From positions 66,464,001 to 66,528,000 of the forward strand of contig NC_043000.1 of assembly GCF_006345805.1 (NCBI RefSeq): a DNA stretch of 64,000 bases. The letters run 5' to 3'. Positions 2,838-52,600 of the stretch are shown here, piece after piece. This DNA is from Octopus sinensis (taxonomy: Eukaryota). The position numbers and the translations under genes are program-made. The notes under the pieces were generated by a model. It did no database searches. It was not told the DNA's origin and was given only the letters and a program-made list of their open reading frames with translations. How positions within the stretch are numbered: position 1 is the stretch's first letter; every line of letters begins with the position of its first letter.

Positions 2838-3807
2838 TAATTACAACCCTAATGAAAAGTCGTTGATATCAGGTGCAAGGGAAAGAGCTCATTAAATTTC
2901 AATTAGCTAAAAATTCTGAAGACATTTTGAGCTTTATTAGACCTCCTCTGCAATGCACAATTTGCTCAAGGGCTGCCAACATCTCAGAACAGATACAATT
3001 TTTTAATATAAAGAACATTTGCAATGTGGCAAATTAAAATAATAATCTCATAAAATCAACGAAACAGATTAGGGCTGGTGACAGGAAGGACATCTGGCCA
3101 TAGAAAATCTGCCTCAAGAAATTCTGTCTGATCCATGCAAGCATGGAAAAGTAAATGTTAAATGATGATAATGTTGACATGAAATGTATTTGATCAGAAG
3201 AAATATACAATAAGATAAAAGATTCTGTAGAAGGGATTAAATATAACATTAACGAGTTAGAGTACTGAACAAATAGAAAGTAATTTTGTAATTCAAACTG
3301 TTATAGAGATAATAGTAACAATGAGACACCCCTCCCATATGACAAGGAATTAACAAACTCATGAGCATTAAACAAACTCACAAGGAGTTACAAAACTCAC
3401 AAAGCTGTTTGTGTGAATTTTACAGTATAAAAATTTGTAAATTATGGAAGAATTGTTGGCCGGTTTGTTTGAGTTGCAAAAACAGCAACAACAACAATTG
3501 CAAGAACAACAACAATTACTATTACAGCAATAAATGCTGCAATTAATGAATAGTAAGTTGTTAAGAAGTGCTGAAAAAATGTTCTCGCCAGATTATGCTG
3601 CAAACTCAATAACAGAGTTTAAATATGAATCAGACGAAGGAGTTAGCTTCAAGGTAAACTATAGAAGACATGAACAGATCTTCAATAAAGAGGGCAAATA
3701 TGAGGAAGATGACATGAAATCGCATCTAATCCTGAGAAAACTGGCAGATGAAGAACATGAATGTTACAGTAATTACGTACTCCTAAAAAAACCTTCTGAC
3801 GTAAACT

Positions 3808-3965
3808 TTAAAAATACAATACTGAGTAAATTTTTTTTAAATACAATATTGAGTAAAATTTTAAAAAATACAATATTGTTTAAAATTTTAAAAAACACAA
3901 TATTGTGTAAAATTTTAAAAAATACAATATTGTGTAAAATTTTTTAAAATACATTACTGTGCAAA
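3808..3965 (+). repeat. ~27-bp tandem repeat (about 6 units) inside gag
   Basis: AAAAATACAATATTGTGTAAAATTTTA-type units, translating as KNTILxKIL. Confidence 0.9.
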
Positions 3966-4116
3966 AAGTTTTAGTGAGAAAAGCTTGCTGTTCAATACAC
4001 TTTGGAAATGTTTGAACCTAGAAAAGAACAACGAGGAGGACTACATCACATATGCTGGTAGAGTTAACAGACACTGAAAAGTTCAAACTGGACATATTAA
4101 TGCCAGGTATGTTTAA

Positions 4117-4336
4117 CCCTTTAGTTTTCAGATTACTCTGTTAAATGTAATATTTTTTTACTTAAATTATTTTTAATTAATCATACATTATCTTATAGCT
4201 TTGAGGTTTCAATGACGTGATTGTTCATTTTTAGAATGTCAATGTAGATTAGGTGTGAGAGTCCTGATCTGGTCAGTTTAAACATAAAACTGGTAGAAAA
4301 CTTTGGCCGGATATGGCCAGTTTAAACACTAAAGGG
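4117..4336. mobile_element. piggyBac-type MITE nested in Gypsy gag
   Basis: TTAA|CCCTTTAGT...ACTAAAGGG|TTAA; excising it restores GMFKCL. Confidence 0.9.
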
Positions 4337-7300
4337 TTAAGTGCCTGAAATTTCTCAGGGACTAATTGCAGAAAAAGACGCAGAAGTAATAACAAGAATT
4401 CTCGCTAAGCTGGAACAAAACCAAGCTGTAACCTTACAACAAGTGTCAGAAAAGTGTGAAAGAATAGTAAATTTAAGACATGACACAGTGAAAATTGAAC
4501 ATAAAGATTTCTCCCAAGTGAAACATGAGTGTCGGAAAATACAAAACAAGCAGAGTAGAAATCAAGTGTGTACTAAAATACAGTACAAACAGGACAAAAA
4601 TCAGGAAACAAACCCATGTCTTGCATGTGCAGGTCTACACCTGAGAGAAAACTGCCTATTTAAGAAAGCAGAATGTTTCCATTGTGGAAAAATTGGACAT
4701 GTAAAAGCATACTGTAAAACCAAGATGACAAAACATTGGAACAAAGACAAACGAATAAACAAGATATCGTTGAAAGAAAATGGTAATGTGACAAAGAGGA
4801 AATTTATAAATGTGAAAAATGAAAATGTAAGATTAAAAATGCAGTTAGACACTGGAAGTGATATTACCATTGTGAATGAAGAAACTTGGAAGTAAGCCAA
4901 AATTAAGTAAATCTACAAAAGTAACACAAGGTGTTATGGGTAAAAGATTGTATTTTGTAGGTGAATTTGTGTGTAATGTGACATTTCATAACCAAATGAA
5001 AAAGGCAAAAGTATATGTGTTAAAAAATTTAGCAAATCTATTCGGTACAGAGTGGATGGAACTGTTCAAATTGTGGAATATGCTCATAAGTGTTTTGTGT
5101 GGGAATATAGACGGTTCAGTCAAAAGTCCGAATGCAGCTGAGGGATTGAAATGAAGAATAAAACATTTATTTCCAGATGTTTTCTCATATGAACTGGGCT
5201 GCTACATGAAAACAAAGGAAAAATTGTAGTTAAATCAAGTGCAACACCTATATTTAAGCCAAAACAGAAGGTACCACTCGCAGCACTAAGGAACTTGAAA
5301 AACTTGAAAGCCTAGGAATAATCAGGAAGATGGACCACTTGGATTGGGCAGCATCTACGGTCTATGTAAAAAAGAAAAATAATAAGTTAAGAGTTTGTGC
5401 AGATTTTTCAACAGGATTGACTGATTGCTTAATCTCACTTAACTACCCATTGCCAAGTCCTGAGGAAGTGTTCACAAAATTGAATGGAGGAAACTCTTCT
5501 CAAAAGTAGACCTCTTGGAGGCATGTCTACAAATCCATGTAGAAGAAGAGTGTTCACACTTATCAGCCATTAATACACACCATGACTTATTTAAATTTAA
5601 GTGTAAAAGTGGCTCCTTACATATTTCAGCAAGTGATAGATACAGTGCTGGGTAACTGTGAATTTGCTATTGCCTATTTAGTTGATATCCTAATAAAAAG
5701 TGAATCACACTAACAACATGTAGAATATGTAAAAAGTGTATTCAAAAAGATAAGAGAATATGGTTCTAAGTTAAGTGAAGAAAAATGCAAGTTCTTTCTG
5801 AAAAAAATTAAATACTTAGGCCAGATAATAGATAAAAACAGATGCAAACTAGATCCAGCCAGAGCAACTGCTATAAAAAATATGCCCACACTGAATAATA
5901 CGATTATGCTACAAGCATTCTTGGGTTTAGTAAATTACTATCAAATTTACATTCCAAATATACACTATGTAAGGACCCTGCTAAATGATTTGTTAAAGAA
6001 AAATGCAAAATAGTGCTGGACTGATAAGTGCCAGAAGGCATTTGACAAATTAAAAAACATTTTAACATAGATCTTATTATTAACGCATTTTGAACTGAAG
6101 TTAGATATTATATTGGCTACAGATGTGAGTGATTATGGTGTAGGAGCAGTGCGCCTGCACAAATATGATGATGGGAGTAAAAATATGACAATGTGTCATG
6201 ATCATTATTACCAGCCAAATAGAAAAGGAAGCATTAGCAATCACATTTGGTATGAAAAAATTTCACTGATATATTCATGGAAAAAGTTTCTGTTTACAAA
6301 TCATTGCCCAGTACTGTCAATATATGGTTTTAAAAAAGGAATACCAACACACACAGTGAATAGACTACAGCAATGAGGCACTACATTATTGAATTATGAT
6401 TACAAAATGGAATTTTTACCATAAAAAAAACTAGGGCATGCAGATGGTTTGTCCAGACCGATACCGAAACATGGCGAGCCATTCAAAGATACAGTAATTG
6501 CAGCATTAAGGTCAGAAAGAGAAATAAAAAATGTAATGTGGAAAATGGTACAAAAATTACTGGTGACCCTTGAAGGCATAAAATGAAATGTGGAAAAGGA
6601 CAAATTCATAACACAGTTGAAAAGAATACTGTGGACAGGAAAAGTAAAGAGAAACAGGATTGGTGCGAAACAAAACCAAGATGTGAACCTATACATAATT
6701 TGTGATGGCGTACTGATGTATGCACAGAGAGTAGTAATACCTGAAGCATTGCAAAAGAAAATGTTGAGGGAATTCCACATTGGACATCCAGATATTTCGA
6801 GGATGAAAGCTTTAATGCATAGCTATGTGTACTGACCAAAAATGGACAGAGAAATAAAAAAATTAGTGAGAGGCTGCAGAGGATGCACTCTAGCAGCAAA
6901 ATTACCGATGATAAAATATGAACCTTGGCCAAAAGTAAATGTTCCATGGTTGAGACTACACATCGATTTTGCTGGTCCCTTAAACATTTCATACTACTTA
7001 GTGGTAGTATATGTTTCTCTAAATGGCCAGAAATGTGTAAGTGTAAAAAGCCAACCTCCTCAACTGCAACAAATTTTCTACATGACCTGTTTGCGAGATT
7101 TGATGTCTTAGACACGATAGTGTTTGACAATGGAACACAATTTGTGTCTTTTGAGTTTAAAAGTTTTGTAAGAATTTGCTGTAGAACATGTAGCTATAAT
7201 GCTATACCAATACCACCCCAGATCTAACAGACAAGCAGAACACTTTGTCAATATGTTCATGAGAGCCCTAAGAAAGTCAAATAAGGAAGTCATGGATGAG

Positions 7301-8164
7301 GTAGCTCTACAACAATTCTTAAGAGTATACTGTGTGAAACCAAATCCAAATATACCAGCAGGTATGTCACCAGCAGAGCTGATGCTTGTGAAGAAAATAA
7401 AATCAGTCTTCAACAATTTGCTATCTGGTAAGAAAAGAAAAATTGCAATGGATGATACAGCAAGATATTTCAAAATTGGTGAAAATGTATTTGTTAGGGC
7501 ATACAGAAAACAAAATTGGGAAGATGGTGTGATTACCAAATGCATAGGAAAAATGCTATTTTTGATAAAAGGAAGAAAAGGAGTATACAAGAGATACATA
7601 AATCAACGAAAAAAGGATTTGTTGAGAGTGAACCCCAGAGAATGGAAGAAACAGTGAAATGGTTATATAATACATTTCAACTCAAACGCCACTACAAATA
7701 ATTGAACCCAGATGCACAAGCAAAAGAAAAAGAAAATGTACGGAATTCCTGCAAGTAGATGCCAAATGAAAAAAGTATTAAATGTGTAACTGCATGAAAA
7801 AAAAAACACAAAACGGGAGGTGGGTTGATGTAAAAATTGTTACTAATAAAAGAAATAAAATTACACTCCCTAAGAAAAAAGCGAAAAATTTAAAAGGAGA
7901 GATATTGTGGGAATAATAGAAATGAAGGGACACTCTTCCTACATGATAAGTGGTATGTGCTAGTTGTTACAAACACTGTGACATAGGAAGTTGAAAGAGT
8001 GTCAGCCAAAGGTCAGTTGTAAAGACATGATAGATAGTCATGTCTTTACTTGTCTAACTAACTATACTGCTATACTAGAGTGGGTGTTACAACAGTCCAA
8101 CAGAGGATTATAACATTAACAATGTAGTAGGATTACATTAAATATACTTGAATGTGATAAAAAG

Positions 8165-17119: not shown

Positions 17120-20100
17120 AGCATACACAAGAACAGTCTCTACAACTGTCACAGGGATCAATACTAATAATTTTAATGTAGCACAAATATGTCTTATGAA
17201 ACAAAGAGGAAAACTATTGCTTGTCCTATGGTTAATCTGGAAGAGTGTCCCCCAGGAGAGAGCCAGCCTGAGGTTGAAAAGTCATCCACTGGCACAAACT
17301 CTTCTCAGAATACGAACCTGGATGGTCACTTGAATGGGAACTGCCCCAACTTGAGCCCTCCAAGTTCATCACCATACCCACCACGGAAAGAAAAATGAAG
17401 AGGATCAAATGGACCCAAGAAGAGTATACAGAAGTAATATACACTGATTAATATGCATTAGGCAGGCCATCTCACCAAGAAAAGAACTGCTTTTAGCAAA
17501 AGAAACACTCCATGCAAAGAATACAAGGATTTGAGTAGAGAAACAAGTTTTACAAGCAAAATAAGCTGTTCACATCCAATGTGAAAACATTCTACAGAGA
17601 ACTAGGGAAGGAGAAAACAACCACTGAAGACCCCACTCCCATGGAAGAAGTTGAAAACTTTTGGAAAAATATCTGGAGTGATGAAAACATACAATGAAAA
17701 TGCAGGCTGGATTAGATACACAGAAGGGTCCTACCAAAATTTACCAAAACAAGCATAGGAAGACATCACAATAGCAGACCTAAGGATGACACACATGAAG
17801 GCTCATAAGTGGAAATCCTCTGGTAATGATAGGGTGCCAAATTTTTGGCTTGCATTGCTCCTGTGCACACATGAGAAGTTAATCCATTTAGTCAATGAAA
17901 TTATGAGAGATCCTACAAAAACACCAGATTGGTTAGCAAGAGGTATTACTTAAGTATTCCTGAAGAATAATGAAACCAATTTTCCCCAAAACTATTGGCC
18001 TGTAACATGTCTATTTACCACGTATAAAACTTCAACATCCATCCTCATGGAGAAAATATACAAATTTATGGAACAGAACAACATTTTCCCAGTGAACAAA
18101 AAGGGTGCTGATGAAGTTCTTATGGATGCAAAGACCAACTCTTAATCAATTGCATGATTCTTCAGAACTATCATAGCAAATGCAGAAATCTCAGTTCCGC
18201 ATAGATTGATTATAAAAAGGCCTTTGACAGCACACAGCATTCATGGATCTTGAAATTGCAGGATATCTTCAAAATTTCTCCTGTGATTTCAAACTTCCTG
18301 AAGCACATGTCAATGTGGAATACAAATCTCCAGTTATACATCTCTAATGGAGTACTGACCACAAAAAATATTAATATCAATTGCAGCATTTTCTAAGGTA
18401 ACTCACTTTCACCTTCAATTTTTTGCTTAGCCCTGATACCCCTTACAAGTGACCTTAACAGAATAGGGTATGGATATAAAATTGGCAACAAAAAAATAAG
18501 TCATCTATTTTATATGGATGACTTAAAACTTTATGGCAAAGATGATAACGAGCTTGAAGGACTACTATGTACTGTGAAAGTATTCAGTGATGACATCGGA
18601 ATGGAATTTGGTCTTGATAAATGTGCCAAGGCCACTTTCCAGAAAGGGAAATTGAAGACCTCACATTCAGTGGTGTTGGATGTTGACACAGTCATAAAAG
18701 AATTCGAGCAGGAACAAACTAACAAATACCTCAGAATAAATGAGAACTCTGGCATTCAACATGCAAGTATGAAAGAGATCAGGCAAGAATGTTACAGGAG
18801 AGTTCAAGCAGTCCTAAAATCCGAGTTAAATGCATATAACAAGGTATTGGCTATAAATTCCTTAGCAGTTCCGGTTAATATTTACAGTTTCAATGTGTTG
18901 AACTGGAATATGAGTGAAATAAGGAAGATTGACAAAAAGATCCGTAAGCTGTTGACTTGCAATAAGATGCACCACCCAGACATAGATTATTTTTACCTAC
19001 CTAGAGCTTAAGGAAGCTGAGGCTTGATCCGATTTGAAATCTCTTACAAAACCACACAATTGGCCTGGCAAAATATCTTGAAACATCTAACGACTGGACG
19101 CTAAGACTCATTGAAAACCATGAAAGATGTAAAAAACTTCATTCTGTTACGAAGGAGAGCAAAAACTTTTCAAGTGAGTTTATGCATAATACTCAGGTTG
19201 AACAGCATGATGGAAGTGCAACTGTAGTCGCAAAGAAAGTGAAATCAATAACAAAACAAAATATGTTTGAACAATTGACTGATAGGTGGGAACAAAAACC
19301 TCTGCATGGCAAATATGTGACCTGTAGCAAATAAGGTGATATAGAACAGAAGCACACCCATCAGTGGCTATGGAGCTCAAGGCTAAAGGCAGAGAGTGAA
19401 GGCTTTATCTTGGCTACTCAAGAACAGAGCTTACTGACCCAGAACTATCGAGCCAATGTGATGAAAAATGTTGTAAATTCAAAGTGCCAATACTGCAATG
19501 ATGAGATTGAAACAATGGACCACCTAATCTCTGAGTGCAAGATTTTAGCACTAGTAGAATATAAATCAAGACATGACAGAGTTGGCCAATATCTACATTG
19601 GATAATGTGTCAGCATTACAAAATCAAAACTGCTGACAAATGGTACAAGCATCACCATGAGGCTGTAACTGAAGTAGAAAATGTAATGATTCTTTGGGGC
19701 TTTCCAGTATGTACAGACTGTACCATCAAAGCAAATAAACCAGATATGGTTGTGAAAGACCAAAATAATATAGTAAATATCTATTGATTGACAGGAGCAT
19801 ACCCTGTGACCATAATATATTGGCAATTTAATAAGCTCAGAAAATATAAAGATTTGGTAATTGAAATGGAAAAGATGTGGCATCTCAAAATAGTTACAAT
19901 ACCAGTGATTGTAGGAGCACTTGAAATGATCAAAAAAGGAACTGAAAATTATTTAAAATGAACCCTGGCTTACCATCCATGCAGGAAGTGCAAAAGATTG
20001 TCTTAACTGATACTTCACATGTACTGAGAAGAGCATTGTCGCTGTGAATTTCCTTTTCTTTTTCCCCCTTTATTTTCTTTGTTTACTGTTTTATTTTTTA

Positions 20101-26907: not shown

Positions 26908-27083
26908 CTTACTATTATAGACCAATGAATCTCTGCCCAAATCATAGATGAGATCATGTAATTCTGGTGTGTAAGATGCCAATGTATAGTCATAGTCAAA
27001 TCCATAAACTTCAATTTCCTGAAGCTGTACTTCATTATTGGCAAAAATTGCTTTCCTGTTGACATTAGCAGGAAGATCATAAT
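26908..27083 (-). CDS. NT5DC3: NT5DC3-like exon 2 (HAD motif I)
   Basis: ttatttcag|AT...AAG|GTAATA; YDLPANVNRKAIFANNEVQLQEIEVYGFDYDYTLASY, containing the NT5DC2/3 signature GFDYDYTL (DxDxT). Confidence 0.97.
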
Positions 27084-27194
27084 CTGAAATAATAACAGAA
27101 ATTAAATAGAAAAAAAGAAAAACCAAAACAATAAAATTTAATCTAACTAATAGTCCTCTTTGACATTTATTCCACACATACGTTTTGAGAAACA

Positions 27195-27820: not shown

Positions 27821-28929
27821 CCAATCCTATTTGTTTCCACTAAATAATCAGGACTTCTTGTCCTGATTATTTAGTGGAAGATATTTGTTCTTAATTATTT
27901 AACTTACATCTTAGGTTAAGGGCTTGCACAAAACTGTATTGGTTCCATGAATCAAATGAATTATTAGACATGATAAACAACTGAGATTATATTCACTGAT
28001 ATGAGGAGAGTGATATACAGTCAATCATGCCTAGAAAGTCCAGAAGAGACTGGTACTAAAATTTGGACAACACCAGTACAGTGCTCGCCAATGAAGCTCT
28101 CTATGAGTCACACTCTATCAATTCTTGAGTGCCCCAGGGCTTAGTTATGAGTCAAACACTCTTCTCTATACTGTTTTACTGTTTTTTTCCGCCATCCTTC
28201 TCTAATTCCCTTTTTTACCCCTCCCTTCTTCATCGTTTTCTATCTGTTTCTCTCTCTTCCCTATTTCTCTTTCTCTCTCTCTCTCTTGTTGCTCACATGT
28301 GACCATAGTCCATCTTTCTTTTCCTGTACAGACATTCAAAAGAGCAGACATTTTCTTTTCTCTCTTTTCTCTTTTCAAAAAAATATTTCTCACAGCATTC
28401 ACTATTTTCCTCTCGTTCTGGTCTAACGACCTTCCATGTTTGTTTTCGTTTGGTTTCCTTGTATGTTTCCACTGCCATGTTTTTATTCCCAAATTTGACC
28501 CTCCATAAATACTAAATTTTATTTTAGAATTTCTGGGAGCAACTGTCTTTGAAGACTCATACTGTCGCTGAATGATCAAAATGAGGAGTAGATAGACAGC
28601 TGATAACTGATGAATGGTCCTTTCGCTATGTTTACTTGTCCAGTTCTCCATTTTTTCTCCTTGTTTATGTATTTCATGCTTGAACCGTTGGTGATATCCT
28701 GTACCAATATATATATGGTTTTAAATTGATATTAAAATTAATATTAATTTATCTCCCTCATTATTTATATATATATATTCAAAAAGCAATAAAGATTCAA
28801 GTTAATTTAAATGAATTTACTTGAATATGGTACCTAACTTAGATGCACCAAAAAAAAACTATACTGTTTTAACAATACAGTAATGTGGGGTGATTATAAG
28901 CGAGAAAGAAGCAACAAGAATGGATAGGT

Positions 28930-29020
28930 TTTTAGTACAATCGTTTCATACAAGGACAGGCTTTATTAAAAGTTGCAAAAATTACAGCATATAAACGTGT
29001 CCCGTACTCATCAGCTAAAA
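28930..29020 (-). ncRNA. Identical hammerhead ribozyme, sense to NT5DC3 intron 1
   Basis: Mirror copy of 30234-30324 in the left arm. Confidence 0.8.
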
Positions 29021-30233
29021 TACATGTGAGTTCTCTAGACATCCTAGTGGTTGAGGCTATACTCATGAAGTAATGTAGATAATTAAGTAACATAAACAGA
29101 TTTCCAAAGTTCATTAAAGTTCTTTAAAGATGATGTACAGTCTTATCACAGAATTTTAAAAAAGTTTTAATAGCATCACAGAGAAGGCGACCTAATCCAT
29201 AGTGCACATATGAATTTCCAGAGATATGAGGAGGGATTACATACTCACAGACGACAAATTTATCCATTGTTAATCACAACGAGGTGGGTCTCAATTCCTG
29301 CTTATTAGCATTACAGAGAGGGTGAATTAATCCTTTGTATAGATGCACAATTTCCAATGGTGTAGATGTAAATTTCCAGAGAAATGAAGAGGAATTTCAT
29401 ATTCACAGGCGATAAATTTATCAATGGTTGAACACAATGAGGTAGGTATCAATTCTTGTTATATGATTAGGTATTTGCCACATTAATCACATTACTGCTA
29501 TTTACAATAGCTATTTAACTTTTAAAGGCTGAAGGGCTTTCTAGAGAGGCAAAGAACAGAAAAGGGAAGGGAAGAGAAGAAAAGAGAGAAAATAAAGGAG
29601 GAGGGAGGAAAAAAAGGGGGGGGGGACTAAAAGAGAGGAGAAAAGGAAAAAGAGAATAAGAAGAAGAAAAAGAAAAAAGAGAAAAGAGAAAGAAATAGGG
29701 AAAGAAGGGAAAAAGAAAAAGAAAAAAAGAGGGTTCTAGTTATACAGAAGAATTAGTAGTAATGTGATTAATGTGGCAAATACCTAATCATATAACAAGA
29801 ATTGATACCTACCTCATTGTGTTCAACCATTGATAAATTTATCGCCTGTGAATATGAAATTCCTCTTCATTTCTCTGGAAATTTACATCTACACCATTGG
29901 AAATTGTGCATCTATACAAAGGATTAATTCACCCTCTCTGTAATGCTAATAAGCAGGAATTGAGACCCACCTCGTTGTGATTAACAATGGATAAATTTGT
30001 CGTCTGTGAGTATGTAATCCCTCCTCATATCTCTGGAAATTCATATGTGCACTATGGATTAGGTCACCTTCTCTGTGATGCTATTAAAACTTTTTTAAAA
30101 TTCTGTGATAAGACTGTACATCATCTTTAAAGAACTTTAATGAACTTTGGAAATCTGTTTATGTTACTTAATTATCTACATTACTTCATGAGTATAGCCT
30201 CAACCACTAGGATGTCTAGAGAACTCACATGTA

Positions 30234-30324
30234 TTTTAGCTGATGAGTACGGGACACGTTTATATGCTGTAATTTTTGCAACTTTTAATAAAGCCTGTCC
30301 TTGTATGAAACGATTGTACTAAAA
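30234..30324 (+). ncRNA. Type-I hammerhead ribozyme with extended helix II
   Basis: TTTTAG-CTGATGA-[60-nt hairpin GTACGGGACA...TGTCCTTGTAT]-GAAAC-GATT-GTA^CTAAAA; 6-bp helix I. Confidence 0.8.
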
Positions 30325-30430
30325 ACCTATCCATTCTTGTTGCTTCTTTCTCGCTTATATATATATGACGGGCTTCTTTCAGTTTCTATCTAACAAATCC
30401 ACTCACAAGGCTTTTGTCGGCCTGAGTCTA

Positions 30431-32382
30431 TATCATCATCATCATCTTCATTTTTGTCGCTTTGATGTCCGTTTTCCATGCTGGCAGGGGCTGGCAACCC
30501 AGAAGGCTGCACCAGGCTCCAATCTGATCTGGCAAACTTCCAACAGCTGGATGCCCTTCCTAATACCAACCACTCCAAGAGTCTAGTGGTTGCTTTTTAT
30601 GTGCCACCGGCATGAGGGCCAGTCAGGCAGTACTGGCATTGACCACACTTGAATGGTGCTTTTTATGTGTCACCAGCATAGGAGCCAGTCAGGCGGTACT
30701 GGCAACGACCATGCTCGAATGGTACTTTTCACGTGTCACTGGCACGGGACCAGTCAGCTGGCACTGGCAACGACCATGCTCGAATGGTGCTTTTTATGTG
30801 CCAGCAGCACAGAACCAGTCAGATGGCAGTGGCATCGATCACACTCAAATGGTGTTTTTTACGTGCCAATCAGGCGGTACTGTCATTGGTCATGACAATG
30901 ACCTCACTTGAGTCAACAGGTCTTCGCAAGTGCAGTTTATTGCTCAATGATTGAAGGGTACTCTTAAATGGGCTGGTTATGCTGCACTGGCATAGGCCAT
31001 AATCACGGTCTCACTTGGCTTGCCAGGTCTTCTCAAGCACAGCATATCTCCAAAGGTCTCGATCACTTGTCATCACCTCTGTGAGGCTCAACGTTCGAAG
31101 GCCATCCTGGGTCTACCTTTTCCACAAGTTCCCTCTAATTTGTCATAGTTTGGCTGACCGAAAACTAGGGTGTGACACTTTTTCATACAGCTGTCCTCAT
31201 CCATATGCAACACATGACCATACCAGCGCAGTCGTCTCTCTTGCACACCACATCTGATGCTTCTCATGTCCAACTTTTCTCTCACTTACATTCTGTCGCA
31301 TATGCACACTGACATTACACATCCAGTGGAGCATACTAGCTTCCTTCCTTGCAAGCTTACACATGTCCTCAGCAGTCATGGCCCATATTTCACTGCCATG
31401 TAGCATGGCTGTTTGCACACATGCATCATACAGTCTACCTTTTACTCTGAGCGAGAGGCCCTTTGTCACTAGCAGAAGTAGGCTATTCTTATTCTTCCAG
31501 CTACACTCTCAGAACATCCACCCCTGCAACTGACTTGGTCACCTAAGTAATGGAAGCTATCAACTACTTTTAGTTTTTCCCCCTGGTATGTGATGGAAGC
31601 TGTTTTCTGCACATTTTCTGAGTTTATTGCTCCTGAGAATTTGCTACACACAAAAACTATCTTCCCAGTTAGCCTTCCTTTGATATTGCTGCACCTCTAA
31701 TGTGTTCATAGCTTACACTGGGTACATCTTATGGAATTTCTACCAATACCTATGGGAGTGACAAATGAAAATATCAATAGTGGAAAAGAAGAATACAGGC
31801 AGGGTTAGGTATGCTCTGGAAAGACATTTCTGTGTTAGACCGAAAAGAGAAGGGGGAGGTTAAAAGCAAACACAAATACAGAGCACTGAACAAGAAAAAT
31901 GATATTCAGTGCGACAATGAGATAGAGAATAGTAAACCAGACATAGTGTTGAGAAAGAATGCAAGCCATGCTGGATCCTAAATATAGCAAGCCCAGCTGA
32001 CAAGAAGGTATGCGATAAGGGAGAAAGAAAAGTCGATAGATATGACAGGTTAGCTTGAGAGGTTAAGCAGTTGTGGACAATGAAAAAGGTGGTAGTACTA
32101 GTAATTGTCGGAGCCTGGGGAATAGTGAGTAAAAATCTTGAGAAGTACATGGAACAAATAGGGGCTCTAATAAGAATGGAGCAATTGCATAAAACAGCAC
32201 TGCTTGGAACCACTCAAATACTCCGGAAGGTACTCAAAAAGTAAGGGGTGCTATCTTAGTTCACTTTGGTTTTTGCTAGACTGACTCTAAGGCCCTTTGT
32301 TTCTAGACCTTGCTTCCATACCTGAAACTTCACCTCTAGTTCTGATAGTGACTCAGCTATTAGAGAAAGGTCATCAACATAG
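30431..32382 (-). mobile_element. Decayed RTE LINE (3' half) with ~60-bp 3'UTR tandem repeats, interrupted by an R4-like fragment
   Basis: RRLRWYGHVLHM, GLSLRVKGRLY, VDSFHYLGD; (CAT)n tail at 30431-30446; RT resumes at 32263-32382. Confidence 0.9.
31860..32250 (+). mobile_element. R4/Dong-like RLE 3' fragment nested in the RTE
   Basis: WTMKKVVVLVIVGAWG..SKNLEKYMEQIG..QLHKTALLGTTQILRKVL. Confidence 0.75.
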
Positions 32383-34037: not shown

Positions 34038-34152
34038 AAACTGACAGCTGTTTCGGCAGTGAGGACAGTCATACCTCATTTAACCTATAAGCCATAAAGG
34101 CAGGTATAAATGAGGCATTAACAAGGATGCCCCACGGCCTCTTCAGAGAATT
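34038..34152 (-). ncRNA. Hammerhead ribozyme core with 85-nt helix II hairpin
   Basis: CT-CTGAAGA-GGC...GCC-GAAAC-AGCT-GTC^AG; internal 12-bp ATGCCTCATTTA/TAAATGAGGTAT; helix I weak (2 bp). Confidence 0.7.
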
Positions 34153-36247: not shown

Positions 36248-36574
36248 CTATTTGAATCTAGAAAAGGTGAACGGTAGCCTATGAATACAAAAGAAGTTTT
36301 TTTCATTAATGTTGTTAATGATTTGCCGACCCGCTTTAATAATGAAGAAAATTTCATTAATACATAGAGAGCATTTTTTATTTTTTCCATTATACACAGG
36401 TGCTGAAGTTAGTATTTTCCAGTTTAATCTAAAATCTAAGTTCTTATTTTTAAGTTCCCAAATGTATGCACTTAGCCCTGTAGAGTACATTCTATTTTTA
36501 TTCCTAAAAGTATATCTGTGATAATTCCATCTTTGTTTTATGCTATTCATAGTTGCCCCGATATACACCCTTGG
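36248..36574 (-). CDS. Penelope-type GIY-YIG endonuclease domain, uninterrupted from YIG to stop
   Basis: PRVYIGATMNSIKQRWNYH...TGLSAYIWELK...WKIL...CSLCINE...IINNINE...CIH; R, H, E and N positions retained. Confidence 0.8.
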   Translation of the reverse strand, partial: PRVYIGATMNSIKQRWNYHRYTFRNKNRMYSTGLSAYIWELKNKNLDFRLNWKILTSAPVYNGKNKKCSLCINEIFFIIKAGRQIINNINEKNFFCIHRLPFTFSRFK

Positions 36575-37719: not shown

Positions 37720-39648
37720 TCATCATCATCATCATCATCATCATCGTTTAACGTCCGTTTTCCGCGCTAGCACGGGTTGGACGGTTCGACCGGGGTCTGG
37801 GAAGCCAGGGGCCGCTCCAGGCTCCAGTCTGATCTGGCAGAGTTTCTACGGCTGGATGCCCTTCCTAACGCCAACCACTCCGCGAGTGGAGTGGGTGCTT
37901 TTTATGTGCCACCTGCACAGGGGCCGGGGGGGGGGGTCCGGCATCGGTCACGATCGGTTCGAGCTTTTAACATGCCAGCGGCACAGGAGCCAGCCAAGGC
38001 GGTGCTGGCAACGTTCGGATGGTCTTACCGGCACAGAGGCCAGTCGGGGCAGCGCTGGCATCGGCCACGTTCGGATAGTACTTTTTATGTGCCACCGGCA
38101 CAGGCATCATAACTCCTATTTCCATTGATATTTATTTCGACGTTCATGTTCATGTACTTGACTCAACAGGTCTCCTCAGGCACAGCAGGACGATCTGGGA
38201 TCCGGGGTACTTTGAATGGGCAGGGGCTATGTGGAACTGATGCAGGAAGTAGCCCGGGTCTTTTCAGTCACAGCATATCTCCAGAGATCTCGGTCCTTCG
38301 CCATTGCCTCAGTGAGGCCCAATGCTCTGAGGTCATGCTTCACTACCTCATCCCATGTCTTCCTGGGTCTACCTCTCCCCCTGATACCTTCAACTGTTTG
38401 GGAGTGGCACTTCTTCACACATCTCTCTTCATCCATCCGCAGCACATGACCATACCATCGCAAGCGTTGCTCTTGCACACCACATCTGATGCTTCTTATA
38501 TCCAGCATTTCTCTCAGGATGCTTACACTCTGTCGTGCGTGCACACTGACACTACACATCCAGCGGATCATGCTAGCTTCATTTCTTTCAAGTCTACGCA
38601 TGTCCTCTGCAGTCACAGCCCATGTTGCATTACCGAGAAGCATGGCAGTTCGCACACATGCATCATACAATCTACCTTTCGCTCTGAGGGAGAGACCCTT
38701 TGTCGCCAGTAGGGGTAGGAGCTTTCTGAACTTTGCCCAGGCTATTCGTATTCTAGTGGTGATACTCTCTGTGCATCCACCTCCGCTACTAACTTGGTCA
38801 CCCAGGTAGCGGAAACTATCAACTACTTCTAGTTTCTCTCCCTGGAGTGTGATGGAATCTGTTTTCTGAGTGTCTGTTGTGTCTATTGCCCCTGTGCATC
38901 TGCCGCACATGAAAGCTATCTTATCTGTTAATTTCCCTTTAATGTTGCTGCACCTCTTATGCGTCCATAGCTTACATTGGGTGCATCTTATGGAGTTTCT
39001 ACCAGTACCTTTCCTACAGATTGAGCAGGGCCACCTACCCGAGGGGGTGTGTGCTGAGTACGCCTTGCTGCTTACTATTACTTTGGTTTTTGCTACATTT
39101 ACTCTAAGGCCCTTTGATTCTAACCCTTGCTTCCACACCCGAAATTTCTTTTCTAGTTCCGGTAGTGATTCTGCTATGAGAGCTAGGTCATCAGCATAGA
39201 GGAGCTCCCAGGGGCATCCCGTTTTGAATTCCTCTGTTATTGCCTGGAGGACTATGATGAATAAAAGGGGACTGAGGGCTGAGCCCTGGTGCACACCTAC
39301 TTCTACCTGGAATTCTTCACTATATTCGTTGCCAATCCTAACCTTGCTGACAGCCTCTCTGTATAGAGCCTGTACAGCCCTTATTAGCCATTCGTCAATC
39401 TCCAGTTTCCACATCGACCACCAGATAAGGGAACGGGGAACCCTGTCAAAGGCTTTCTCCAAGTCCACAAAAGCTATGTAGAGGGTTTATCTTTAGCTAG
39501 GTACTTCTCCTGCAGTTGTCAGACCAGGAATATAGCATCAGTGGTGCTTCTACCTGGTACAAAACCGAACTGCATTTCATCTAAGCAAATTCTCTCCCTA
39601 ATGAGATGGGTTATGACCCTCTCTGAGACCTTCATCACCTGGTCCAAC
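37720..39648 (-). mobile_element. Relatively young 5'-truncated RTE LINE
   Basis: 413-aa open RT ORF (38227-39468): DLEKAFDRV, GVHQGSALSP, LLYADD, FRYLG, RLRWYGHV; GC/CpG-rich 3'UTR; (TGA)n tail. Confidence 0.95.
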
Positions 39649-43630: not shown

Positions 43631-43820
43631 CTTTTAACTGAGCCTTCCGTTGTTCATAGATTGCTTTCAGGTAGAGGCGGTCTTTCTTCTGAAGACACTT
43701 ATTCGAAACATGTAGCTTCCTAGTGTTTATATATGTGATTTTCAGTCGGCCTGATAAATGTCCAGAATGAGCCGTGCGACGAGACAATCGACACAATCTA
43801 ACGCACATCCAGCTAAACAT
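43631..43820 (-). CDS. NT5DC3: NT5DC3/NT5DC2-family 5'-nucleotidase, coding exon 1 (ATG; Arg-rich presequence-like N-terminus)
   Basis: ATG at 43820 in a locally CpG-rich region; MFSWMCVRLCRLSRR...KAQLK; donor AAAG|GTATGT. 190 nt, phase 1, which joins exon 2 (G+AT=Asp). Assigned by phase and composition, not by homology. Confidence 0.75.
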
Positions 43821-51516: not shown

Positions 51517-52600
51517 CTCAGGGTGGGGAAGCAAAATTTACAATATTTTGAGGCAGAGATTGAAAGACAGTGTATGACCAATTTGTTTATTGAAAGTCAT
51601 GAGAATTTATTTGCCACAAGACAATTTACATAATAGAAAATATTTTTATTCTATGTGTTGTCCTTCTTTCTCAATAACTGCCTTCACACGCTTCCTGAAA
51701 CTTGCACAGGCATTCCTCAAATATTTGGGAGAAAACTTCTCTCATTCTTCTTTAATAGTATCTTTAAGAGAGTCGACATTGCTGTGTGATGTTCTATTGG
51801 TAGCATGTTCTAAAGCGCCCCAAATAGCATAATCCAGAGAGTTTAGATCTGGGCTAGAATGCGGCCATAAACATGATTCCAAAAAATTGCTAAAGTTGGA
51901 TTTGCAGAAATCTTGTATTTTTCTAGCTGTGTGGACTGGAGCACCATCCTGTGTCCATACATAATTACCATCTGGGTAGTTTGCTTTAAGCCATGGCAAT
52001 ACTTGGTATCTCAGAGTCTTGTAGTAAGTATTAACATTGATCTTTTCATCAGCTTTGTAGAATTTTATAGGCATTTTCTTTCCATCGGAAGCCACAGCAC
52101 CAAAAGCCATAACTTGAGCAGGATCTTTTGTTTTGAATGTCCCCCTTAACCTCAGCTGTTGATTTTGCAATAAATCTGTCATTTCTGCTGTTCAGAACAG
52201 CATCGACAGTGAAGATCTTTTCATTTGAAAAGATCGTTACAATGGAGGACTTTTTCTTGAAACATGTAATAATTTTCTTGCACCTCTCCAATCTCTTTTC
52301 CTTCATAGCTGTTGTCAACAAGTGTTTTGGTGTTCTCGTGTAAGATTTTAACCTCAAATCATATTTTACAGCATTTCTAATGTTCTTGTTGTCTACCTCA
52401 AGTTCAATTGCCATTTTTCTCATGGATTTGGTTAGATCCTTTAGGATTTGGGATTTGAGAGCTTTGATAAAAGCTTTGGTACATCTTTTGTTGATTCCTC
52501 AACTTTCAGACTTCCTCGTAATAGATTTGCTCATAGTCATTCTATTCTTTACATTATAAATAGTCTTTATGGACACTCCAACTATTTTTGAAATCTCCAT
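51517..52600 (-). mobile_element. Tc1/mariner maT-family (DD37D) transposon, frameshifted, 5' end missing
   Basis: IFSNEKIFTVD (first D to N); WTQDGAPVH...WPHSSPDLNSLDY with 37 residues between the second and third D; terminus TA|CTCAGGGTGGGGAAG. Confidence 0.9.

Follow-up and report, generated by a model that had tools for sequence, protein, structure and literature searches.

A head-to-head, 5'-truncated Penelope-like element, probably of the Hydra clade, with paired hammerhead motifs in an NT5DC3-like intron of Octopus sinensis

An NT5DC3-like gene of Octopus sinensis carries, in its first coding intron, a near-perfect inverted repeat with a hammerhead ribozyme motif in each arm. We consider it highly probable (roughly nine chances in ten) that this repeat was left by a Penelope-like element (PLE) of the Hydra clade, inserted head-to-head and truncated at the 5' end within a (TA)n run. 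The insertion is likely very young and likely neutral, and its hammerheads have likely been conserved for the element and not for its host. Observed family identity, copy number, architecture, TA flanks and a co-varying ribozyme fold carry this reading. The locus is most likely ordinary element debris rather than a gene switch, in a layout that is common in this genome and already described.

The window analyzed is the whole 64,000-nucleotide stretch of contig NC_043000.1 (positions 66,464,001 to 66,528,000), and all coordinates refer to it. A sequence-only reading had proposed a 602-bp near-perfect inverted repeat, which the assembly does contain: the arms (28895-29496 and 29758-30359) are reverse complements over 602 bp with exactly one mismatch (29188/30066), and a repeat finder stretches them to 609 bp with two further mismatches at the junction. 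The insertion as a whole spans 28777-30359 (~1.6 kb), beyond the 28895..30359 first noted, the addition being a 118-bp tail that belongs to the left arm only. The spacer between the arms is element-derived and not host sequence; the main copy comprises 3' UTR/pLTR only, without coding sequence, and terminates at the long one of two classes of element end. Both insertion ends sit in TA runs. The features, in order along the window, are as follows.

26908..27085, minus strand: second coding exon of the NT5DC3-like gene, contained as a block in a 2,874-nt contig from a sequencing run guessed to be RNA
28766..28776, unstranded: left (TA)n target run, its border with the element uncertain by a few bases
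28777..29759, minus strand: main 5'-truncated copy, unit positions 3621-4614, matching the natural unit in locus L031 at 98.0%
28777..28894, minus strand: one-sided tail of 118 bp, separating the short element end from the long one
28895..29496, minus strand: left arm of the 602-bp inverted repeat, from repeat finding and arm alignment
28930..29020, minus strand: type-I hammerhead motif in the sense of the NT5DC3-like pre-mRNA, with cleavage predicted after 28936
29497..29757, minus strand: spacer of 261 bp, purine-rich on the plus strand, element 3' UTR present in the main copy only
29754..29759, unstranded: head-to-head junction with microhomology (2 exact bases; 5/6 over six)
29758..30359, plus strand: right arm, the inverted 5'-truncated copy, unit positions about 3891-4496, terminating at the short end
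30234..30324, plus strand: type-I hammerhead motif on the strand antisense to the host pre-mRNA, with cleavage predicted after 30318
30356..30366, unstranded: right (TA)n target run, sharing bases with the end of the arm
43632..43820, minus strand: first coding exon of the NT5DC3-like gene, matching residues 1-63 of Octopus bimaculoides protein P0122 at 94%

Within the 3' region of the element, a 102-bp direct repeat (29199-29458 and 29796-30055; 80% alike, 158-bp period) recurs in other copies too. Directly to the right of the insertion (30400-30900) lies a repeat of very high abundance that includes a 65-bp tandem array, the bin with the deepest contig coverage of all.

Placement of the repeat in an intron of a minus-strand NT5DC3 gene proved correct, as the exons at 43820-43632 and 27085-26908 flank it: the host is an NT5DC3-like gene whose best relative is the O. 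bimaculoides protein, and the repeat lies in its first coding intron, ~1.7 kb before exon 2. Assembled contigs compared with the window came from four of the 24 listed sequencing runs; among the contigs listed, dominated by other family copies, none showed an allele lacking the insertion. The same intron holds, on the minus strand, an older Hydra-type PLE remnant (36251-36565), a nuclease fragment 37% identical to the family protein P0001 described below, and a hammerhead-like motif (34043-34146) with a perfect 8-base palindrome and a helix I of only 2 bp; lying 2.1 kb apart, with the motif downstream, these probably represent one older element. Judging by the appearance of their ORFs, we take the stretches 3500-7660, 18397-19787, 38227-39486 and 51742-52498 to be further decayed mobile elements, presumably including LTR-retroelement-like pol, non-LTR reverse transcriptase (RT) pieces and a mariner-like transposase.

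Copies of the arm abound in the genome: a search gave 1,843 candidates, of which 40 were scored, and all 43 matches listed were 99-100% identical. A 35-base piece of the ribozyme has 1,024 exact occurrences in the genome, against none for a reversed-pattern control. Two loci (L031 and L032) carry direct repeats 4,614 bp apart, that is, tandem units, around a broken ORF in the sense of the ribozyme, with partial tandems forming pLTRs. A sister subfamily (L061:1998-4841) retains an intact ORF of 947 residues, P0001, and a related one (L074:1898-5269) an open ORF of 1,124 residues; relatives of P0001, 385 among 8,000 scored candidates, are mostly ~700 aa long. The Penelope-like origin and the association with a Penelope RT anticipated from the sequence alone were thereby borne out, in that long relatives carry an ORF for an RT and a putative nuclease, with Hydra-clade motifs, and, within tandem units, the ORF runs in the sense of the ribozyme.

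P0001 contains the motifs RWK, DKT, YRDD, CxCx5C, CxxC and CxH. RWK, DKT, CxCx5C, CxxC and CxH fall at positions 37, 124, 808, 905 and 935, and CCHH is absent from the alignment as judged by eye; YRDD is conserved across 32 aligned proteins, and a YIG motif and the Arg that follows it are conserved too. The predicted structure (pTM 0.73) has TERT as its top PDB fold match (E 6.6e-9); full-length relatives encode a telomerase-like RT. A Pfam search of P0001 and a PDB sequence search with the family profile both gave no match; Pfam GIY-YIG matched one of the 32 family members, weakly (E 0.0011), and not P0001 itself, so that the C-terminal nuclease of full-length relatives is a putative one, suggested by motifs and that single Pfam match. 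Asn-rich inserts separate RT from putative nuclease in P0001 (40% Asn over residues 640-790), a feature described for the ORFs of rotifer Penelopes (PMC3846280).

RWK, DKT, a CxCx5C linker, CxxC and CxH define the Hydra clade of PLEs (Craig et al. 2021, PMC8557442), and the motif set argues for assigning the element there. Its 4,614-bp unit exceeds the <3 kb that is usual, though typical and not defining, for the clade, because of the Asn-rich inserts and a 1.7-kb 3' region. An RT piece gave 9,823 first-look candidates in the genome, of which 150 were scored, at 67-100% identity; the clade is very abundant here. One further protein, P0053, is 38% identical to P0001 and, compared by eye, almost matches the protein that precedes the octopus family Hydra-1_Obim in the supplement of Craig et al. 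That paper names only a small number of Hydra-clade families beyond Repbase, and a search for literature on hammerheads in octopus, mostly outside subscription journals, found nothing on the present family by title or abstract opening among the papers listed. The family is new and abundant, and its clade is a known one.

The complete type-I hammerhead claimed for each arm is matched by our descriptor, including the predicted cut after 30318. Each arm presents a 6-bp helix I, CTGATGA (30240 on the plus strand, 29014 on the minus), a 60-nt helix II region, GAAAC, a self-complementary 8-mer and GTA; helix III has 2 bp. These two motifs are the only descriptor matches in the window, and in 60 random 64-kb Markov sequences the strict form of the descriptor gave no match and the loose form one. 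A covariance-model check did not go the same way: an Rfam scan of the window, with E values allowed up to 10, returned no hammerhead family, and the call accordingly draws on descriptor and co-variation. The long helix II likely explains the missing Rfam match.

Both arms have G10.1-U11.1 in place of G10.1-C11.1, as had been noticed earlier. Across 17 motifs the pair is G-C in eight, G-U in five, A-U in two and unpaired in two, and all 1,024 exact matches to the ribozyme 35-mer carry the U, so the G-U is a trait shared by the young subfamily and not local decay. The 17 motifs were drawn from subfamilies spanning ~70-100% RT identity and selected by core pattern, two unrelated pattern matches and near-duplicates being excluded. 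The conservation of helices that the earlier reading would predict is seen in this set: 95% of cells are paired and six of 16 pairs changed on both sides, in helices I and II and the loop palindrome, whereas slid controls were 30-49% paired. None of 500 shuffles reached the co-variation score, a count that, among related sequences, is not a probability. The co-variation implies that selection on the fold likely acted in the lineage of the element.

The near-palindromic helix-III loop proposed to serve dimers is likewise present, the 8-mer having a predicted self-pairing of -5.8 kcal/mol, as in dimer-type hammerheads. A heterodimer with the older intronic hammerhead-like motif was considered and rejected as too weak, its predicted loop duplex being -1.5 kcal/mol against the -5.8 of the homodimer. 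Standing alone, a copy whose helix III spans 2 bp probably cleaves little.

The layout itself is frequent. We sampled the first 100 of the 1,024 matches in order (contig C1 and part of C2), which resolve into 67 loci, and found 27 head-to-head and no tail-to-tail pairs; four of 13 apparent singletons examined are also inverted at both ends. Outer arm ends adjoin TA-rich runs throughout 51 loci, leaving aside one incomplete end and two long ends at internal tandem junctions. Over 42 inverted loci the arms differ at 57 of 13,019 sites, so the near-identical arms of the present locus are typical of the family. Its repeat is longer than most, with arms of at least 602 bp at three of 31 sampled loci; arm lengths and junctions vary at every locus, and longer copies continue into the RT-nuclease ORF. 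Inverted, 5'-truncated copies with a one-sided tail and a (TA)n target are in print (PMC8557442; PMC3846280), as are paired hammerheads on opposite strands (PMC4209133); in the supplement of Craig et al., Penelope-13_HM is listed as having both an inverted copy and hammerheads on the two strands (PMC8557442). The single mismatch in 602 bp gives a rough inferred age of about 0.2 My, with an upper bound of about 1.3 My, at the rate implied by 0.09 = 25 My (PMC13282606).

These counts bear on the proposal that the antisense arm has been kept by selection as a safety catch against the ribozyme cutting NT5DC3 pre-mRNA, which we regard as very unlikely. In the minus-strand transcript the antisense arm does precede the sense ribozyme (28930-29020), as the sequence-only reading held, and the predicted duplex of the arms pairs all 91 ribozyme bases at -154 kcal/mol, against -10.5 kcal/mol for the active monomer fold, which is itself predicted only 2 kcal/mol above the minimum; many invertebrate type-I hammerheads are, moreover, reviewed as cutting as monomers (PMC7761336). 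Predicted pairing sufficient to cover the ribozyme therefore stands, but a special control of this gene is not supported, because the identical geometry occurs at 27 of the 67 sampled loci. Head-to-head geometry gives the antisense-first order at every such locus, for either strand, and the order thus needs no selection. Both arms are, in addition, likely products of one insertion event, the estimated age is low, helix III is short and the window has one sense copy of the family ribozyme. There may indeed be little to silence, as the pre-mRNA holds a single sense copy and related PLE hammerheads, when alone, cut poorly or not at all: the monomer of a Schistosoma PLE motif did not cleave (PMC4209133), and an anole PLE ribozyme cleaved in vitro only with the protein of its element (PMC11167929). 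We see no sign of selection on behalf of the host gene.

Masking and editing may plausibly be by-products of insertion geometry instead. A read-through transcript would meet the antisense arm first and form a duplex of ~600 bp that would bury the ribozyme. This duplex is, as predicted, a likely ADAR substrate, and editing is plausible because it is young repeats that ADAR chiefly targets (PMC9989829). Genomic copies have no excess that would mark an ADAR footprint (A>G at 9 of 11,140 A sites, T>C at 13 of 13,674 T sites), these counts being single-copy substitutions in the element sense, which are uninformative on editing of host transcripts. A search mostly outside subscription journals found nothing, by title, on antisense masking of PLE ribozymes. 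Because a preprint reports retrozymes to be depleted from introns in Xenopus (10.64898/2026.07.22.740005), the idea that masking aids tolerance stays worth testing.

Two structural rivals fare worse. An artefact of assembly or of fold-back reads is a scarcely credible source of the inverted repeat: the arms are near-identical and the contigs listed include none bridging the junction, other family copies dominating them, but the outer ends are the two stereotyped ends of the family, each on a TA run, the junction has microhomology, the arms differ at one site and polarity across loci is 27 to 0, and random fold-back would yield none of these features. The long inverted arms and TA flanks would fit a DNA transposon of the foldback or MITE type, framed by long terminal inverted repeats and targeting TA, but this reading can be set aside almost entirely, as it is contradicted by arm lengths and junctions that vary per locus, a spacer continuous with one arm, and an ORF for an RT and a putative nuclease in longer copies.

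The preferred reading, a truncated head-to-head PLE, can be given a tentative course of insertion. Element ends fall in two classes, at unit positions 4490-4496 (short) and 4600-4614 (long), and 26 of the 27 unbiased inverted loci pair one long with one short end, the remainder being one short-short and no long-long pair (P about 2e-7 against independent even odds). Arms diverge by 0.62% within a locus and by 1.53% between loci. We infer that the nuclease of the element would nick both strands within a TA run, each nick then priming reverse transcription on uncut element RNA, one start being at the far site (unit 4608-4614) and the other at the near site (4490-4496). Both copies would derive from one source element and end early, their truncated ends being joined head to head via microhomology; near-identical arms, a single tail and two outward-facing ribozymes would be the outcome. 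For the anole element PAc, two RT start sites and an uncut RNA template have been reported in vitro (PMC11167929). The exceptional locus, L091, has two short outer ends and its tail inside a tandem junction. At 29 of 31 loci the arms overlap; at L107 and L108 they do not (long-end arm 42-44 bp), as single-template twin priming would give.

Cleaved RNA as template was also considered, and rejected on junction counts of low power: true junctions at the ribozyme cut site and two neighbors number 4, 2 and 6, against 1, 5 and 3 at control positions, where three of the 5 in the second control share one locus and the 3 of the third come from 30 of 42 matches inspected. Copies starting at the cut site are thus not in excess over controls, which fits uncut or re-ligated RNA as template. 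The one-sided tail is already known qualitatively; a search mostly outside subscription journals, weak as evidence, found no paper accounting for it by twin priming.

A bolder extension, which we hold to be unlikely, joins three parts: obligatory two-site twin priming, in which a single RNP would prime both target strands, each from one of two fixed start sites 118 nt apart; self-masking in any read-through transcript, which would let head-to-head copies persist in introns from which solo sense copies are removed; and hundreds of near-perfect ADAR hairpins. Were two-site priming and self-masking true, the family would seed those hairpins in an editing-rich animal. The locus itself matters little, but the family, with more than 1,000 young, near-identical copies, is a test bed, and its counts bear on open PLE questions, namely the origin of inverted copies and the purpose of the hammerhead; two such counts are the long and short ends paired at 26 of 27 inverted loci and the lack of a pile-up at the ribozyme cut site.

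Among known systems, the Hydra clade offers the closest likeness (PMC8557442): the family shares with it RWK, DKT, CxCx5C, CxxC and CxH, a (TA)n target and, close to the 3' end, a hammerhead whose stem III is palindromic. It also resembles Penelope-13_HM of that clade, which likewise combines an inverted, 5'-truncated copy with hammerheads listed on both strands. It differs in its unit of 4.6 kb (against 'generally <3 kb'), a tail of about 118 bp (against 30-40 bp) and a 60-nt helix II region, longer than that of any Hydra motif in the supplement table consulted; its ORF of ~950 aa with Asn-rich inserts also contrasts with the ~700 aa of relatives. The ribozyme sequences, compared by eye, differ from those of Hydra-1_Obim, and the two families are not the same. 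With the PLE hammerheads of Cervera and de la Pena 2014 (PMC4209133) it has in common a type-I core, a short helix III, a palindromic loop and mostly truncated elements; unlike those motifs, it has G10.1-U11.1 and not G-C, no extra base between 9 and 10.1, and a full 6-bp helix I. The 'dual' opposite-strand motifs of Schistosoma lie 100-700 bp apart (PMC4209133), whereas the present pair is 1.3 kb apart.

Intronic inverted repeats that act as ADAR substrates provide a further parallel, young repeats being the main A-to-I targets across a panel of animals that includes octopus (PMC9989829); here, by contrast, both arms likely come from one insertion, and editing is a prediction only. The Penelope of Adineta vaga (PMC3846280) and anole PAc (PMC11167929), although they belong to other PLE clades, share with this family an inverted pLTR, a mostly head-to-head arrangement, a one-sided tail, Asn-rich inserts, a pair of RT start sites by which the tail is set and, probably here too, uncut RNA as the template. 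In vitro, PAc showed no strand difference in start site (PMC11167929), whereas in this family the two sites pair one-plus-one at 26 of 27 loci.
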